Shown here: positions 1 through 62,027 of the stretch, one piece after another
Numbering within the stretch: position 1 is the stretch's first letter
How the letters are laid out: the number at the start of each line of letters is the position of its first letter
Sequence record: PQ850631.1
Source of the DNA: Escherichia phage VerenaGrendelmeier_Bas101
Direction: 5' to 3' (one strand)
Length of the DNA: 64,000 nt
Translations under genes and position numbers: made by a program
Notes under the pieces: generated by a model
Database searches by the model: none
Seen by the model: the letters and a program-made list of their open reading frames with translations, nothing else
Told to the model about the DNA's origin: nothing

Positions 1-1428
1 ATGTACCAGTTGAATCCTGCTTTAAAAGAAGTCTGGAAGACAAAAGCGCGATACAAAGTAATATACGGCGGTCGTGCATCTTCCAAATCGCATGATGCCG
101 CTGGTTTTGCTATTTATTTGGCGGCAAACTTCAAATTAAAATTTCTTTGCGTGCGACAATTCCAGAACAAGATTTCTGAATCTGTATATACTCTATTAAA
201 AGACAAAATAGAGATTTCTGATTTCAAAGATGAGTTCAATTTATTAAAGAACTCTATTGAACATAAAAGAACTAAATCTGAATTTCTATTTTACGGTATC
301 GCACGTAACGTTGATGAAATCAAATCAACGGAAGGTGTTGACGTCCTTTGGTTGGAAGAAGCGCACGCGCTTACTGAAGAACAGTGGGACATTATTGAGC
401 CGACAATCCGTAAAGAAGGGTCCGAAATATGGATCATCTTTAACCCTGATGAAGAGGCTGATTTCGTCTACCAAAACTTTGTTATGCGACCGCCGAAGAA
501 TGCCATTGTTAAAAAGATAAACTGGCAAGACAATCCATTTTTGTCGCAAACAATGCTGGACGTTATTGCAGGCATGTACGAGCGTGACCCGAAAAAGGCA
601 GAGCACGTTTATGGCGGCGTGCCGAAGACTGGCGGCGACAAATCTGTAATCAACCGCGCATTCGTTAAGGCCGCTCTTAATCTCCACAAACACCCTACGC
701 TGGGATGGAGTTTGTCAGGGTCTAACCGTATAGGCTTTGACGTAGCGGACGATGGCGACGACCTTAACGCCACTGCATTCGTCACAGGAAACGTATTGCG
801 CGGCATCAAGACTTGGGAAGGTCTGGAAGATGAATTGTTGAAATCGGCAAGCGGAGTTTGGAAAGATGCGCTTACATTTGGCGCTTCTATAACTTATGAC
901 GCCATCGGTGTCGGCGCTTTTGCTGGTTCAAAATTTGATGAACTAAACGAGTATGCAATACATGAAAATCCATCATTTCCAAGAATCGAATTTAATGCGT
1001 TCAACGCGCAAGGGTCTGTTGATGATCCTGATGACGTTTTTCTTGAGCTACCACACGTTGAAATACTCAATAAAGACCATTTCGCAAACATAAAAGCGCA
1101 AAAGTGGACTGAAATTGCAGAGAGATTCAGAAAGACATACGAATATGCAACTGGGCAAGCCGTATATCCGACTGATGAATTGATTTCAATCGACACCGAT
1201 GGTATACCGGAACTTGGGATTCCAGCTTGGACTACTGAAGAGATTGAGACGTTTCTTTTTGAGATGTCAGCGCCGCGCAAAGATACGTCTGTTCTTGGCA
1301 AGTTCAAAGTTGAATCCAAAAAGGATATGGCAAAGCGTGGAGTCAAATCACCTAACAAAGCGGACGCAGCAATCATGGCATTGATGAAACCAATTGTTGC
1401 AGCATCCGGCTTCTTCTCTAACCTTTAA
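1..1428 (+). CDS. terminase large subunit
   Basis: 475-aa ORF starting at window base 1; N-terminal P-loop-like KVIYGGRASSKSHD; directly upstream of portal-like gene. Confidence 0.7.
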   Translation: MYQLNPALKEVWKTKARYKVIYGGRASSKSHDAAGFAIYLAANFKLKFLCVRQFQNKISESVYTLLKDKIEISDFKDEFNLLKNSIEHKRTKSEFLFYGIARNVDEIKSTEGVDVLWLEEAHALTEEQWDIIEPTIRKEGSEIWIIFNPDEEADFVYQNFVMRPPKNAIVKKINWQDNPFLSQTMLDVIAGMYERDPKKAEHVYGGVPKTGGDKSVINRAFVKAALNLHKHPTLGWSLSGSNRIGFDVADDGDDLNATAFVTGNVLRGIKTWEGLEDELLKSASGVWKDALTFGASITYDAIGVGAFAGSKFDELNEYAIHENPSFPRIEFNAFNAQGSVDDPDDVFLELPHVEILNKDHFANIKAQKWTEIAERFRKTYEYATGQAVYPTDELISIDTDGIPELGIPAWTTEEIETFLFEMSAPRKDTSVLGKFKVESKKDMAKRGVKSPNKADAAIMALMKPIVAASGFFSNL

Positions 1429-1431
1429 CAA

Positions 1432-1671
1432 TCAAAGCATTCCGTGCTGAAGGTCAAGCTTTCTTGCGGCAAACGACCTGGCACGGAATCGCTTACCCGC
1501 TCTCACCGCCTGCCGAATCTTCTTTTGCATACACTTACGGTCAAAATCGTTGCGGTCAACGGCTTCGAGTAAATCCCGACGCAAAGCACCTAGTGTCGCC
1601 TTTTCGGATAATTCCACGCCCAGCGCGGCTGCAACGTCTTTCAAAACATCGAGTTCGGTTAACGTTCTCAT
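1432..1671 (-). CDS. hypothetical small protein with basic C-terminus (second gene of minus-strand cassette)
   Basis: 79-aa ORF; start overlaps stop of upstream minus-strand ORF by 4 bp; C-terminus KKIRQAVRAGKRFRAR is Arg/Lys-rich. Confidence 0.4.
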   Translation of the reverse strand: MRTLTELDVLKDVAAALGVELSEKATLGALRRDLLEAVDRNDFDRKCMQKKIRQAVRAGKRFRARSFAARKLDLQHGML

Positions 1672-2084
1672 TTGATGATCCCCTTGATGTCTGATTCTGC
1701 CATAAAGATTGGAGTGCCGCCGCCGGGAACAATCGAGCGCGTTACTTTGTCGAACATATCGTTCTCTTCAACTTGAATACGATAAAATTTATTTTTGGAT
1801 GAAGATGGGCACAATCCAATAAATTTACCAATGCCGCGAACGCATTCATCTTCAAAGTATACTGTTTCGCCTTGAATGGATTCGATGTTTTCAACCGGAT
1901 ACACCTTGCGACCTAAAAGCCACTCATCCATGGTCGCCTGCAACACGTTTCGCGCATCCAAAATCCAAGGGTCAACTGTGGCACCTTCATATCGCGCAGC
2001 AGTGGCTTTTGCCAGCTCTTCATATTCGCATACGTTTACCACTTCGCCTTGATGAAGGACGACAAATACAATTGTTGTGCTCAT
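1668..2084 (-). CDS. hypothetical protein (first gene of minus-strand cassette)
   Basis: 138-aa ORF; AAAGGAG RBS 7 nt upstream of ATG; transcribed opposite to flanking late genes. Confidence 0.45.
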   Translation of the reverse strand: MSTTIVFVVLHQGEVVNVCEYEELAKATAARYEGATVDPWILDARNVLQATMDEWLLGRKVYPVENIESIQGETVYFEDECVRGIGKFIGLCPSSSKNKFYRIQVEENDMFDKVTRSIVPGGGTPIFMAESDIKGIIK

Positions 2085-2112
2085 TTCAATCTCCTTTCGT
2101 TTGGTTAACTAA

Positions 2113-2140
2113 AATATAACTCAAAATGATACAAAAGCAA
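2113..2140 (-). promoter_or_regulatory. sigma70-like promoter (TTGCTT-16-TATATT) for minus-strand cassette
   Basis: read on minus strand: TTGCTT, 16-bp spacer, TATATT, about 30 nt upstream of the RBS of 1668..2084. Confidence 0.45.
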
Positions 2141-2179
2141 AATATTTTATGAACTATTTATGATTACTATACATATCAT

Positions 2180-2208
2180 TTGCTTACAAACACATGAATA
2201 TTTATAAT
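2180..2208 (+). promoter_or_regulatory. sigma70-like promoter (TTGCTT-17-TATAAT) upstream of portal gene
   Basis: -35 TTGCTT 2180-2185, 17-bp spacer, -10 TATAAT 2203-2208. Confidence 0.5.
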
Positions 2209-2246
2209 ATAGATTGATTCCCTTTCACTGTCAGGTGGCGTTAACA

Positions 2247-4622
2247 ATGAAAATTCTTGGCATAAAACTCTGGGAGAAGACGCAACCAGAAGCCGAACCA
2301 GCGGAGATGCCGCCAGGCGACCCATTGGCACCGTTTGAACGCCTGGAAAGGCGCGGCAGCGGCCAACGCTGGGATAAGACCGAAAGCAACCGCCCGACCT
2401 TTAAAACCGTTGATGACTTTCCTTTATATGAGCCTGATATCAACGGGGACGGTGTTGCAATCATTAAAGGTCGCTCAGTAGATTCAGCAACCGTATCCAA
2501 AAAAGTTATGGATAATGCCTTAAAGAACATAAGTTCAGAAGGGCAGGTGAATCCATACACAGTCCCTATTCAGTTGCAAAACTGGTACTTATCGCAATCA
2601 TTTATCGGATATCAAGCTTGCGCCATCATCGCGCAGCACTGGCTAGTGAACAAGGCTTGTTCCATGGTAGGCCGCGATGCGGTCCGTAAAGGCTGGGAAG
2701 TCAAATCCAGCTCTGAGTCGGAATTGTCAGTACAGGCAAGCGAACGCCTAAAGCAAATTGATAAAGAATTTAATATCAAAGAGCACTTAGTTGAAGCCGA
2801 ACGATTCAAGAATATTTTTGGCATCCGCGTCATCATATTTGATGTGCGCAGTGATGACCCAGAATATTATAGCAAACCTTTTAACATCGATGGCGTGACA
2901 AAGGGGTCTTATAAGGGAATCATTCAGGTTGACCCTTATTGGATGATGCCATTCTTGACATCTGAAAACACTGCAGACCCTGCATCACAGCATTTTTATG
3001 ATCCAGAATATTGGGTGATCAGCGGACAACGTTATCACCGCAGCCACCTCATAATCTTGCGCAACGATGAGCCAGCTGATATTCTCAAGCCGACTTATAT
3101 CTATGGCGGCATTCCTTTGACTCAGCAGATTTATGAACGTATCTATGCCGCTGAACGTACCGCTAACGAAGCTCCATTGCTGGCGATGTCTAAGCGTACA
3201 ACCACGCTGCGGACCGACGTTGACAAGGCGATTGCCAATGAGCGGTCGTTTGCCGAACGTTTGATGATGTGGATTAAGTACCGCGACAACTATGCGGTAA
3301 AAGTACTTGGTCAGAAAGAAGAGATGGACCAGTTTGACATCAACTTGTCAGACTTCGACAGCATCATCATGAACCAGTACCAGCTGGTGGCCGCAATCGC
3401 AAAAGTTCCGTCGACAAAACTGTTAGGGACGTCACCTAAAGGCTTTAACGCCACTGGTGAGTTCGAAATGGTCAGCTATCACGAAGAATTGGAGACTTGT
3501 CAGCAGCACGATTTGACGAAGATTCTTGACCGTCACTACAAAATCCTTTTGAAATCTGAAGGTGTTGAAGTCGACGTTAAAGTGGCATGGGAGCCAGTTG
3601 GTTCACTTACTGCTACTCAACTTGCAGAGATTAACGACAAACGAGCGAATACTGGTAAGACTCTCATTGATGCTGGCGTCATCTCCCCTGATGAAGAGCG
3701 CGACCGCATCAAAGACGACAAAAACAGCGGCTACAACCGTTTGCCAGAAGATACAGCAGAAGAAACCCCAGGGATGTCTCCAGAGAATATGGCATTGCTT
3801 GGCAAGTCCGCTGGTGAAGTTCTGCAAGGTAAGGCCGATATTGAACAGGCTAAGGCTGATGTTGTCAAGATGGGCGGCCAGTTCTATAGCGAGACTGGTA
3901 TCATGCCGGAAGGTGCCGCGCGCGGTGAGTTGGCAGAAAACCCTGACAGGGCACCAGTTGAGATTAACATGGATGATACCGATGACGAATCAAGCCATCA
4001 CGTTGATGTTCTAACGCAACTTAAAGAGGGTCTGGAGGGTATTGCTGACTATTACCTTAAAGAAGGTCAGGACGTGGATTTTGACCCTCAAAAAGATGCA
4101 AGGTCGGTGCAACCGTCTACGCTTCCAAGCGTAAAAGGAAATGTCGTAAACTTGCGACACAATGTAGGGAAGATGGATGCCGCATCGCTGCCTAAGATGA
4201 AGTTGCACGGGATGATTCTTGGTATTGAGAATCCTCGCAACAGCATTCGCAGGGGTAACAGTCTTGATGGTGAATGGGCAGTTAAGATGCCGCACCATTA
4301 CGGATTCATCAAAGGAACCAAGGGTGCTGATGGTGATGAAGTCGACTGCTTTGTTGGACCAAATATGAAGTCGCCTAAAGTATTCATCATTAACCAAAAT
4401 GATAATTATTCTGGCGAATTTGATGAACACAAGTGTATGCTTGGATTCGATTCAGCAGAAGAAGCGAAAGAAGCTTATCAGGCATCATTTGGTAACGGTT
4501 GGAATGGATTCGACTCAATCCACGAATTGGATGTAGACTCATTCAAGGAGTGGTTGAAGGGTGATTGCTCTCAAGCATATGGAGCACTCAATAATCCTAC
4601 TAATTCACCGAAGCAAGGTTGA
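2247..4622 (+). CDS. portal-like protein with C-terminal inorganic-pyrophosphatase-like domain
   Basis: large ORF after terminase; start moved to ATG 2247 behind AGGTGG RBS; C-terminal HHYGFIKGT..DGDEVDCFV and AEEAKEAYQASF resemble family I PPase. Confidence 0.55.
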   Translation: MKILGIKLWEKTQPEAEPAEMPPGDPLAPFERLERRGSGQRWDKTESNRPTFKTVDDFPLYEPDINGDGVAIIKGRSVDSATVSKKVMDNALKNISSEGQVNPYTVPIQLQNWYLSQSFIGYQACAIIAQHWLVNKACSMVGRDAVRKGWEVKSSSESELSVQASERLKQIDKEFNIKEHLVEAERFKNIFGIRVIIFDVRSDDPEYYSKPFNIDGVTKGSYKGIIQVDPYWMMPFLTSENTADPASQHFYDPEYWVISGQRYHRSHLIILRNDEPADILKPTYIYGGIPLTQQIYERIYAAERTANEAPLLAMSKRTTTLRTDVDKAIANERSFAERLMMWIKYRDNYAVKVLGQKEEMDQFDINLSDFDSIIMNQYQLVAAIAKVPSTKLLGTSPKGFNATGEFEMVSYHEELETCQQHDLTKILDRHYKILLKSEGVEVDVKVAWEPVGSLTATQLAEINDKRANTGKTLIDAGVISPDEERDRIKDDKNSGYNRLPEDTAEETPGMSPENMALLGKSAGEVLQGKADIEQAKADVVKMGGQFYSETGIMPEGAARGELAENPDRAPVEINMDDTDDESSHHVDVLTQLKEGLEGIADYYLKEGQDVDFDPQKDARSVQPSTLPSVKGNVVNLRHNVGKMDAASLPKMKLHGMILGIENPRNSIRRGNSLDGEWAVKMPHHYGFIKGTKGADGDEVDCFVGPNMKSPKVFIINQNDNYSGEFDEHKCMLGFDSAEEAKEAYQASFGNGWNGFDSIHELDVDSFKEWLKGDCSQAYGALNNPTNSPKQG

Positions 4623-6905: not shown

Positions 6906-6934
6906 TTGCCTAAGTTTTTTTCATTAGATATAAT
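6906..6934 (+). promoter_or_regulatory. sigma70-like promoter (TTGCCT-17-TATAAT) for head/tail operon
   Basis: -35 TTGCCT 6906-6911, -10 TATAAT 6929-6934, 24 nt upstream of the start of 6958..8379. Confidence 0.5.
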
Positions 6935-21270: not shown

Positions 21271-21299
21271 TTGCTTATAGACTCCTTATAGATTATAAT
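21271..21299 (+). promoter_or_regulatory. sigma70-like promoter (TTGCTT-17-TATAAT) inside tail module
   Basis: -35 TTGCTT 21271-21276, -10 TATAAT 21294-21299. Confidence 0.5.
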
Positions 21300-33441: not shown

Positions 33442-34965
33442 TTAATTCATCTTTTTGCCGTCGAGGATGTGATCAGCAAGCATAGACTTCATACTTAGTG
33501 ATCGCTGAATTTCTTCGTCGATGGTATCAACACCAATAAAATCAACATACAACACGCTTGATTTGGTGCCGATGCGGTGATTTCGGTCTTCGGATTGCTT
33601 GCGCAGCTCGTTGTCATAGTTGCAAGAATAATAGATTGCCAAGTCGGCAGCGGTAAGCGTGATTCCGATGCCTGCCGCTGCAGCGTGGCAAACCAACACC
33701 TGTGTTCCACCATTCGCGACTGTGTTCTTCTGGAAGTCATCAATTAAGAACTCGCGCTGCTCTTTGGACGTTTCACCGTTGTATACACCAGTGACCACGC
33801 CTTCAGACCCAAGCCAGTCCTTAATCTGGTTCATCTCTTCCTTAAAGATGGCCCAAACGATGAATTTGCGCTCTGGGTCGTCTTCCAGCACCCCTTCCAC
33901 ATAGTCCTTAAAGGCCGTGAATCGTGGGTTGTCTTCCATGTAGACCATCTCATCATACACCTTAACAAAGCCTGATGTCACCTGCTTCATCTTAGTGCGA
34001 GATGCGATCATCTCAAACTTAACGTTTTCTTCTTCGCCTTTGTACTCCATCAGATAGTTGTACTCATTCTTGAGTTCATCGTATACATCGCGCTGCTTAG
34101 GAGACAACTCGAAGTCGATAAACTTGTACACCTTCTCTGGAAGGTCCGGCAAGTATTCCGCTTTTGTCGCACGGAAATAGTGCGGCTCCATCAGCCGGAT
34201 AAGCTTGTCAAGGTTTTTATACATCGGTCGGCCAAACTGGTCTTTGCGCGGCACTTGCGGAATGCCATAACCGTTGCCGCCGATTTTCTTGAGAATGGCC
34301 TGCATCTCTGGGTCGTGCGCTTCAAGCAGCACTGTGAATTCAGAGTTGAATGCACGGAACGATTTGGTGCCGAGCAAGCCAGCTTCAAGGAAGTGATACT
34401 GCATGTAAATATCAGCAGGCGAGCGCGGCAGCGGCGTGCCGGAAAGTATGCGACGGGCCTTTGCCAGCCGTCCCAATTCTACAACCTTGATGGAGCGTTT
34501 GGCTGTGTTATTTTTGATACGCGTCGATTCGTCAATGATCATCAAACAGCGGTACTTCTTCAGGACAGACTCGATGTGTTGATAACCGACTGGTGTGTTG
34601 ACAGTATCGATGTTGAATGAGAAGATGCGCGCAGGCACTTCACCTTCAGGATAGTGATCAGCAAACATCTTCTCCCAAATGGCTTTACCCTTTTTAGTTT
34701 TCATCTTGTCATTTCCGCGCCAGTAATGACCAATCCATTTAATGGAAAGGTGTTCTGGTGCTTCACGACGAATCCAGTTCGAGTGGACACCGTTAGGAGC
34801 GATGACAACCATGGCATCAAATGCGCCAGCGGCGAAGTGTTTTTCAAACTCTGCCAAAGCAGTCCAGGTTTTACCAAGACCCTGTTCCATAAAATAAGCA
34901 AAGTATTTTCTGCGGCCTGCTTTATCAAGCGCCAATAATTGGTGGCGCATCCCTTGTGTTTTCAT
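33442..34965 (-). CDS. SNF2-family helicase
   Basis: 507 aa; Walker A-like GLGKT, DExx-type IIDESTRIKN and SGTPL motifs. Confidence 0.7.
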   Translation of the reverse strand: MKTQGMRHQLLALDKAGRRKYFAYFMEQGLGKTWTALAEFEKHFAAGAFDAMVVIAPNGVHSNWIRREAPEHLSIKWIGHYWRGNDKMKTKKGKAIWEKMFADHYPEGEVPARIFSFNIDTVNTPVGYQHIESVLKKYRCLMIIDESTRIKNNTAKRSIKVVELGRLAKARRILSGTPLPRSPADIYMQYHFLEAGLLGTKSFRAFNSEFTVLLEAHDPEMQAILKKIGGNGYGIPQVPRKDQFGRPMYKNLDKLIRLMEPHYFRATKAEYLPDLPEKVYKFIDFELSPKQRDVYDELKNEYNYLMEYKGEEENVKFEMIASRTKMKQVTSGFVKVYDEMVYMEDNPRFTAFKDYVEGVLEDDPERKFIVWAIFKEEMNQIKDWLGSEGVVTGVYNGETSKEQREFLIDDFQKNTVANGGTQVLVCHAAAAGIGITLTAADLAIYYSCNYDNELRKQSEDRNHRIGTKSSVLYVDFIGVDTIDEEIQRSLSMKSMLADHILDGKKMN

Positions 34966-47344: not shown

Positions 47345-47372
47345 TTGCTTTTATTTTCATAGCAACTATAAT
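47345..47372 (+). promoter_or_regulatory. sigma70-like promoter (TTGCTT-16-TATAAT)
   Basis: -35 47345-47350, -10 47367-47372. Confidence 0.45.
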
Positions 47373-61460: not shown

Positions 61461-61600
61461 AATAAACTCCTAGTTGGGAGAGGCGTTAACGACCTATTCG
61501 TTAACTCATCCCGTCCCGATATGAGTACATTATAATATAGTGTAGAAAAAAGTAAAGCACTTTTTCGATAAAAATGCGATAAATTATTTTATCTTTTTTC

Positions 61601-61998: not shown

Positions 61999-62027
61999 TT
62001 TACTTCTTCGTACACTAAGACTATAAT
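61999..62027 (+). promoter_or_regulatory. sigma70-like promoter (TTTACT-17-TATAAT)
   Basis: -35 61999-62004, -10 62022-62027; paralogous to promoter at 61601. Confidence 0.5.

Follow-up and report, generated by a model that had tools for sequence, protein, structure and literature searches.

Two minus-strand genes between terL and portal of a Wifcevirus phage: a possible remnant of an ancestral leftward operon of PB1-like phages

Between the large terminase gene (terL) and the portal gene of Escherichia phage VerenaGrendelmeier_Bas101 lie two small genes on the opposite strand, here called A and B. The window analyzed, to which all coordinates refer unless noted, is a stretch of 64,000 nucleotides from record PQ850631.1. 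We read the pair, with no more than middling confidence, as a vertically inherited remnant of an ancestral leftward early, host-interaction operon, its products being soluble, non-virion proteins for which a regulatory or host-directed role is likeliest; it is less likely that either is packaged, acts in a membrane or is a toxin. The genes themselves have been seen before, since the annotation of every Wifcevirus genome already lists them as hypothetical. New here are the link of A to ORF16 of Pbunavirus (phrog_5124), a series of relatives among which the operon is reduced, and a conserved divergent promoter region.

The first 5 kb of the window match 28 Escherichia and Shigella Wifcevirus myoviruses at 91–98% identity, the closest being HansTraber_Bas100 (97.7%), and this sequence comparison assigns the window to Wifcevirus, E. 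coli myoviruses related to PB1. Phages of this genus are virulent, have genomes of ~68 kb and are distant kin of the Pseudomonas Pbunavirus (PB1-like) phages; they are reported to be fairly restriction-resistant in K-12 (PMC11990801). A phage of the genus has been described as strictly virulent, with replication within minutes (PMC7048862). Of the two flanking genes, terL (1..1428, plus strand; Terminase_3, Pfam E = 3e–37) is convergent with B, the two stop codons being 3 nt apart in Wifcevirus, while portal (2247..4622, plus strand; Phage_portal_3, Pfam E = 4e–88, with a fused C-terminal InPase domain, E = 3e–46) is divergent from A. A mechanical list of open reading frames had started portal at a TTG at 2214; that start is probably unused, because every annotated relative starts portal at the ATG at 2247. 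For terL and portal, dN/dS was 0.014–0.016 among seven Wifcevirus genomes that differ at ~20–25% of synonymous sites.

An initial annotation, made from the sequence alone, had described minus-strand genes for 138- and 79-aa proteins in this interval, and its coordinates for them proved exact. Gene A (1668..2084, minus strand) opens the leftward unit and encodes an acidic (pI 4.7), soluble protein of 138 aa. Gene B (1432..1671, minus strand) encodes a basic protein of 79 aa (pI 10.3), and the Arg/Lys-rich tail that had been ascribed to it is indeed there: residues 41–79 include 12 Lys or Arg and have a pI of 11.6. The stop codon of A and the start codon of B overlap as ATGA (1668..1671, minus strand), an arrangement kept in 7 of the 7 Wifcevirus genomes compared that suggests translational coupling. 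Among the same seven genomes, variable sites at first, second and third codon positions number 6, 2 and 44 in A (dN/dS 0.074), and 4, 1 and 23 in B (dN/dS 0.061). This third-position bias and the low dN/dS values indicate that both are real protein-coding genes under purifying selection. A has a GC content of 44.6% and B one of 51.7%, the window as a whole having 46.1%.

The initial annotation had also taken terL and portal to be neighbors as a rule. For this group that assumption fails, as an opposite-strand block of 2 to >15 genes splits the two in Pbunavirus, Myosmarvirus, Kylevirus, Wifcevirus and four metagenomic lineages. The block holds >15 genes in the Pbunavirus phages LMA2 and 14-1 and seven in Myosmarvirus WR01; only in Bcepfunavirus Maja do terL and portal share a strand, and there two small genes intervene. 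terL is thus isolated in the PB1-like group, having opposite-strand genes on either flank. Within Wifcevirus the content of the block does not vary: A and B were found at the same position in all 28 records, at 94–100% amino-acid identity. Outside it, the same slot and strand in Kyle (a Pantoea phage, Kylevirus) and in the metagenomic lineages L003, L010, L011 and L012 contain a longer operon, in the order A, a lipoprotein serine protease (Trypsin_2) of 180–200 aa, B, one to three small ORFs, and a DUF2786/DUF7168 protein (phrog_421), the end of which overlaps the terL stop by 4–12 nt. In Kyle, L003, L011 and L012, A and B are separated by the full protease gene; L010 retains a 45-aa remnant of it, in which the signal peptide runs directly into the C-terminal end. 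None of the extra genes of the long operon (protease, ~100-aa and ~170-aa ORFs, DUF2786) was found when a complete Wifcevirus genome was searched by tblastn. Because the relatives hold the longer operon and its extra genes are absent from Wifcevirus, the comparison indicates that the Wifcevirus pair is a reduced version, and that the adjacency of A and B is derived. We also considered Kyle gp022 as a small terminase co-oriented with terL; it lies inside the region that has the conserved promoter, leader and terminator on the opposite strand, resembles no known protein by eye, and was rejected.

Descent of the unit can be followed furthest through A. An alignment of A proteins matched LMA2 ORF16 in hhalign with a probability of 97.6% (E = 3.2e–12, 116 columns). 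Three divergent A-family proteins matched phrog_5124 weakly (hmmscan E = 2–4e–4), a family that LMA2 ORF16 itself matches at E = 1e–88. ORF16 of LMA2, which is gp17 in 14-1 (PP141_gp17), heads the set of genes transcribed divergently from portal. Profile and synteny together point to A as a remote homologue of Pbunavirus ORF16 (phrog_5124), and to its vertical inheritance across the PB1-like group. Homologues of B were found only in the same slot of the Kyle-like and metagenomic lineages (Kyle, L003, L010, L011 and L012). No B homologue was found in Pbunavirus or Myosmarvirus and no A homologue in Myosmarvirus, absences that we count against the remnant reading. The Pbunavirus block between terL and portal is regarded in the Pseudomonas literature as an early genome region (PMC8085984, PMC10914365). 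Among the proteins that it encodes in 14-1 are gp11 (YIP), which binds YfiN, and gp12, which binds the alpha subunit of RNA polymerase (PMC8085984, PMC10914365).

The initial annotation had proposed that the pair is accessory cargo in a moron-like slot, namely toxin-antitoxin, superinfection-exclusion or anti-defence genes, and these possibilities, even when taken jointly, appear unlikely to us. The likeness to a moron stands in part, in that the unit lies on the opposite strand with its own predicted promoter and a strong ribosome-binding site, and in that related phages keep variable or host-interaction genes in this slot, with content that differs between genera. Furthermore, A and B are small acidic and basic proteins paired by overlapping genes, both are ORFans, and the restriction resistance of Wifcevirus in K-12 (PMC11990801) means that an anti-defence gene must exist somewhere in the genome. 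What does not fit is that B is followed by no terminator, that GC content is ordinary, that all 28 genomes carry the pair at such high identity, and that A shares ancestry with the gene opening the Pbunavirus block and is vertically inherited across the group. The toxin-antitoxin version is further weakened because the protease gene (four lineages) or its 45-aa remnant (a fifth) separates A from B in relatives, so that the pair is not obligate; nor did either protein match anything in PADLOC, or in Pfam above curated cut-offs. Membrane-type exclusion is unlikely because no transmembrane segment or signal peptide is predicted in A or B; an anti-defence activity is conceivable. More generally, neither addiction nor prophage-type exclusion should be of much benefit to a strictly virulent phage that replicates within minutes (PMC7048862). 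The cassette is bordered on each side by a copy of an 8-nt direct repeat (TTAACAAT), which was considered as an insertion scar; the repeat is specific to Wifcevirus and not present in relatives, differs among members of the genus, and is most simply put down to chance.

Transcription of the remnant operon would depend on a promoter that we call P_A (2113..2140, minus strand), composed of a –35 hexamer TTGCTT (2140–2135), a 16-nt spacer and a –10 hexamer TATATT (2118–2113). It is followed by a Shine-Dalgarno sequence, AAAGGAG (2091..2097, minus strand), 6 nt 5′ of the A start codon (ATG, 2084–2082), and a ribosome-binding site is annotated at the equivalent place in Mansfield. The initial annotation had named both elements, and they are present exactly as it described them. 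In a generic scan, promoter-like sites were no commoner than in shuffled sequence, and P_A was missed because just 8 of its 12 hexamer positions agree with the sigma-70 consensus; support for P_A must come from comparison with relatives. There, the pair of hexamers, their spacing and their distance to the A start are constant in seven lineages whose A proteins are 26–56% identical, and the variants in other lineages (TTGACT, TATAAT and TATAGT) are nearer the consensus. The Pbunavirus counterpart reads TTTACG-17-TAGACT, and is followed by the common leader CAACCAATGGAG. P_A is thus predicted to be a sigma-70-type promoter conserved across genera.

P_A belongs to an AT-rich divergent control region of 162 bp (2085..2246; 26.5% GC) that fills the whole interval between the A and portal start codons. 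Only 2 of its 162 sites are variable among the seven Wifcevirus genomes, as against ~30% of third-codon positions in the flanking genes, and in the alignment of seven lineages it retains conserved blocks across genera. On the plus strand it contains a putative portal promoter, TTGCTT-17-TATAAT (2180..2208), the –10 block of which is conserved in all lineages aligned; in LMA2 and 14-1, sigma-70 promoters are annotated at the equivalent place. The motif type recurs within the window in gene gaps at 6906, 21271 and 47345. The TTGCYT-17-TATAAT sites at 6906 and 21271 precede structural operons, and since sigma-70-like sites occur there too, the type of P_A gives no indication of timing. Between the two –35 hexamers lies a conserved element, ATACATATC (2169..2177, plus strand; GATATGTAT on the minus strand), which is identical in five of the seven lineages and altered at 2–4 positions in Kyle and L012, and which may be an operator or UP-like element. 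As a recurring operator the element was rejected, because it occurs only once in the 64-kb window and a similar sequence, ATACATAT, 5′ of the 6906 promoter, lies at a different distance.

At the other end of the unit, no terminator-like site was found between B and terL on either strand, folding energies of the 3′ regions of B and terL were no better than those of shuffled sequence, and searches of positions 1–3000 for terminators, RNA structures and Rfam families found none. On the cassette strand, an intrinsic terminator is first met just past the terL start, outside the window (~68,351–68,377 in Bas100), and recurs in 7 of 7 lineages with differing stem sequences and the pairing kept. With no terminator after B and the first one in this position, P_A transcripts probably run antisense across terL. 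The terminator also sits downstream of a promoter-like site of the next gene, and for that reason may serve that gene rather than read-through from P_A. If the read-through occurs, the cassette might work mainly at the RNA level, with P_A RNA antisense to terL and terL RNA antisense to A and B timing or limiting terminase, and with the proteins secondary. The tight 3′ junction (stops 3 nt apart in Wifcevirus, 4–12 nt of overlap in relatives), the retained terminator structure past terL, and the lack of any plus-strand terminator found between terL and portal would all suit such an arrangement. We nevertheless find it improbable as the main explanation: strong purifying selection on A and B shows the proteins to be important in their own right, a terminator annotated in LMA2 between terL and the block means that read-through is not universal, and the unexceptional 3′ folding energies lend it nothing. 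An RNA-level mechanism could still operate alongside the remnant reading, with which it is compatible.

As had first been noted, neither protein belongs to a recognized family. In searches with single sequences and with alignments, Pfam gave no match above each family's curated cut-off, PADLOC gave none, and PDB sequences gave none at E < 0.1. PHROGs yielded no functionally annotated family, the only link being the weak one to phrog_5124. An indexed search returned nine clusters for A and four for B; an exhaustive HMMER search with the A profile over 1.84 billion representatives returned five matches, one of which, a repeat protein, was judged spurious. The AF2 model of A (pLDDT 57) has an N-terminal beta-beta-alpha-beta unit (pLDDT 76–81) followed by a beta-rich C-terminal part, and this C-terminal half may be a small SH3-like beta-barrel of the Tudor, CarD-TRCF-RID or KOW type. 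The model of B (pLDDT 85) has helices at residues 6–17 and 27–78, forming an acidic N-terminal helix-loop and a long helix that is Arg/Lys-rich in its C-terminal half and hydrophobic at 10 of 15 a/d heptad positions; no fold match was found for it. For the N-terminus of B we rejected a HeH/Rho_N/SAP motif, a by-eye likeness for which Pfam gave nothing at E ≤ 10 and hhalign against an approximate E. coli Rho N-terminus gave a probability of 0.2%.

Virion mass spectrometry is available for two phages of the group. A (vBEco4M7_35) and B (vBEco4M7_34) do not appear among the 33 proteins listed for vB_Eco4M-7, nor do their counterparts PI34_gp33 and PI34_gp32, whose tags we assigned from gene order by counting back from the 88.6-kDa portal PI34_gp34, among the 28 listed for ECML-117 (PMC7048862). 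For small proteins such as these, being missing from mass spectrometry is weak evidence; the same work did detect a 7.8-kDa protein encoded just upstream of terL (PMC7048862).

A role in packaging or head assembly has to be weighed at this point, in which B or A would be a hidden small terminase, a subunit that recognizes DNA, or a chaperone for assembly. Small terminases and chaperones are absent from virions, which would be consistent with the mass spectrometry. The genes lie between terL and portal in every relative, with A conserved alongside those two as far as Pbunavirus, and a small terminase is neither annotated in Wifcevirus nor, for Pbunavirus, was one found in a literature search. 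The predicted long helix of the basic protein B, with its hydrophobic a/d positions, could oligomerize. We regard this role as quite unlikely all the same, given that A and B are on the strand opposite terL and portal, that neither Pfam nor PHROGs gave a small-terminase family match and the B model matched no fold, and that no B was detected in Pbunavirus or Myosmarvirus, whose terL nevertheless has 63–66% identity to that of the window. A is moreover predicted to be mostly beta-strand, which is unexpected for a small terminase. Finally, the Pbunavirus counterpart of the block is considered early, and host-targeting proteins are among its products (PMC8085984). The initial annotation would have given up its cargo proposal had both genes been found at this position in all relatives with a known morphogenetic role; the position is indeed shared by all relatives, but no such role is known.

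We therefore return to the remnant of a leftward host-interaction operon, for which the following course of events can be proposed. Host sigma-70 RNA polymerase would start at P_A, at a predicted start of ~2106, and would transcribe A and then B; B would probably be translated by coupling at the ATGA overlap; and the transcript would probably continue past B, antisense across terL, to the terminator beyond the terL start. A could be an acidic two-domain adaptor whose putative C-terminal barrel binds a protein or nucleic-acid partner, and B a small helical nucleic-acid binder acting through its strongly basic C-terminal helix. Both would act in intracellular regulation or host takeover, for example on the transcription machinery or on the A/portal control region. 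A and B may be expressed early, from the predicted P_A. Position on the minus strand does not in itself imply early expression, because a tail fibre and a virion protein are among the products of minus-strand genes beyond terL.

In a more specific form of this proposal, which we think very improbable, A is a Tudor/SH3-like factor that attaches to host RNA polymerase or to the divergent control region and, together with B (in the Wifcevirus/Kylevirus branch) and antisense read-through of terL, sets a switch between leftward and rightward (structural) transcription. A is kept beside the portal promoter in every lineage where it was found (Pbunavirus, Kylevirus, Wifcevirus and the four metagenomic lineages). 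Such a switch, if real, would add a new kind of module for timing transcription, in a phage group much used for therapy and noted for very fast replication.

For the PB1-like myoviruses as a whole, these results recast the genome interval: terL is set off from the head operon, and what lies between the two is better seen as an old, shrinking operon than as a recently filled cargo slot. The link between A and ORF16 defines a small core ORFan family, present in the therapy-used Pbunavirus and the reportedly fast-replicating Wifcevirus beside a nearly invariant divergent promoter region. Its two-gene minimal version occurs in engineerable E. coli phages (BASEL phages Bas98–101 and the synthetic vB_Eco4M-7), which makes these convenient for studying the function of the family. 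Should the function of A and B turn out to be routine, the result is better annotation only.

Among known systems, type II toxin-antitoxin pairs resemble A and B in consisting of two small overlapping genes with acidic and basic products and their own promoter, but A and B lack a toxin or antitoxin domain, are not adjacent in relatives, and are carried by a strictly virulent phage. The morons of lambdoid phages share with the cassette the plan of an independently promoted opposite-strand unit beside late genes; unlike them, it lacks a terminator, unusual composition and presence variation, and it descends vertically across genera. Closer comparisons come from within the PB1-like group. The long operon of Kylevirus and the metagenomic lineages has clear orthologues of A (26–56% identity) and B (27–67%), the same promoter region and the same convergent junction with terL; in Wifcevirus the protease, the ~100-aa and ~170-aa ORFs and DUF2786 are gone, leaving A and B adjacent and overlapping. 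Pbunavirus ORF16 is only 27% identical to A, lacks a segment matching A residues 48–57, and belongs to a family (phrog_5124) whose match to A-family proteins (the hmmscan E-values given above) is too weak for automatic PHROG placement, yet it has nearly the same length (133 vs. 138 aa), the same position and orientation, and a similar leader (CAACCAATGGAG) and promoter layout. The Pbunavirus early region as a whole differs in having >15 genes where Wifcevirus has two, in encoding gp11 and gp12, of which Wifcevirus has no homologues, in the lack of a detected B, and, in LMA2, in the terminator annotated beside terL, where Wifcevirus has none. It nonetheless presents an opposite-strand block of small ORFans in the same slot as in Wifcevirus, with a common first gene (A/ORF16), and has the DUF2786 protein (phrog_421) in common with the Kylevirus-like relatives.

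The 76-aa protein encoded just upstream of terL, outside the window, on the minus strand (34106-34336 in L006, which gives the same region as the record of HansTraber_Bas100, the closest Wifcevirus relative) is Bas100_0111, or vBEco4M7_32 in phage vB_Eco4M-7. Mass spectrometry found this protein in both purified Wifcevirus phages, vB_Eco4M-7 (at 55% coverage) and ECML-117 (PMC7048862), where the counterpart is probably PI34_gp30, judging from gene order and its 7.7-kDa mass. Some of the minus-strand genes near terL thus code for parts of the virion.

Expression of this leftward unit looks like a case of attenuation or antitermination control, to judge from the sequence ahead of the 76-aa gene. 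On the minus strand, opposite to terL and a short way upstream of it (L006 ~34351-34445, Bas100 68351-68445), a promoter-like TTGCTT-17-TAAAAT is followed by a leader of ~40 nt and a canonical intrinsic terminator (GGCCAGA-TTCTT-TCTGGCC-ATTTTTTT), directly after which come the RBS and start codon for the virion protein. The arrangement is kept in seven lineages (L006, L003, L004, L010, L011, L012 and L002), among which the stem sequences of the terminator differ while pairing is retained.

On the plus strand, terL itself appears to have its own promoter, the sigma-70-like TTGATA-18-TATAAT (Bas100 ~68430-68460, seen in L006), ~35 nt upstream of the terL ATG and overlapping that of the divergently oriented 76-aa gene. 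Because no plus-strand terminator was found between terL and portal, transcription of terL may continue into the portal operon. Sites similar to the portal promoter (2180-2208), of the form TTGCYT-17-TATAAT, occur on the plus strand in intergenic gaps upstream of the head-protease gene (6906-6934), the baseplate-spike gene (21271-21299) and a small plus-strand gene (47345-47372). Two further promoter-like sites, on opposite strands (61529-61556, minus; 61999-62027, plus), are almost the same in sequence, with a match that extends upstream (gaaaaagtgcTTTACTT...TATAAT), and possibly belong to a promoter class of their own.

The two borders of the cassette of genes A and B that separates terL from portal coincide exactly with the copies of a direct repeat, TTAACAAT(C/G)AAA (1425-1436 and 2241-2252). 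We judge it a chance match, since the Kyle-like relatives lack it and it is variable within Wifcevirus. The A homologue of the metagenomic Wifcevirus contig L004 (6001-6471; 156 aa) has a frameshifted C-terminus, which means that the gene is a pseudogene or that the assembly is wrong at this point.

In relatives, the gene between A and B codes for a trypsin-like serine protease whose signal peptide is of the lipoprotein type (LAGC lipobox), and it overlaps both neighbours (L003 6411-7019, L011 6414-7013, L012 6426-6998, L002 8414-8959); a 45-aa remnant is left in L010 (3250-3387), and in Wifcevirus the protease is gone. A lipoprotein protease is an unusual thing for a phage to encode. The portal protein (gene at 2247-4622, plus strand) has a C-terminal InPase domain (PF18823, residues 649-771, E 3e-46), a fusion also seen in the Kyle-like relatives. 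Other phages have this domain in large proteins that are associated with the virion or ejected from it, and the PHROG matches include one annotated as DarB-like antirestriction.
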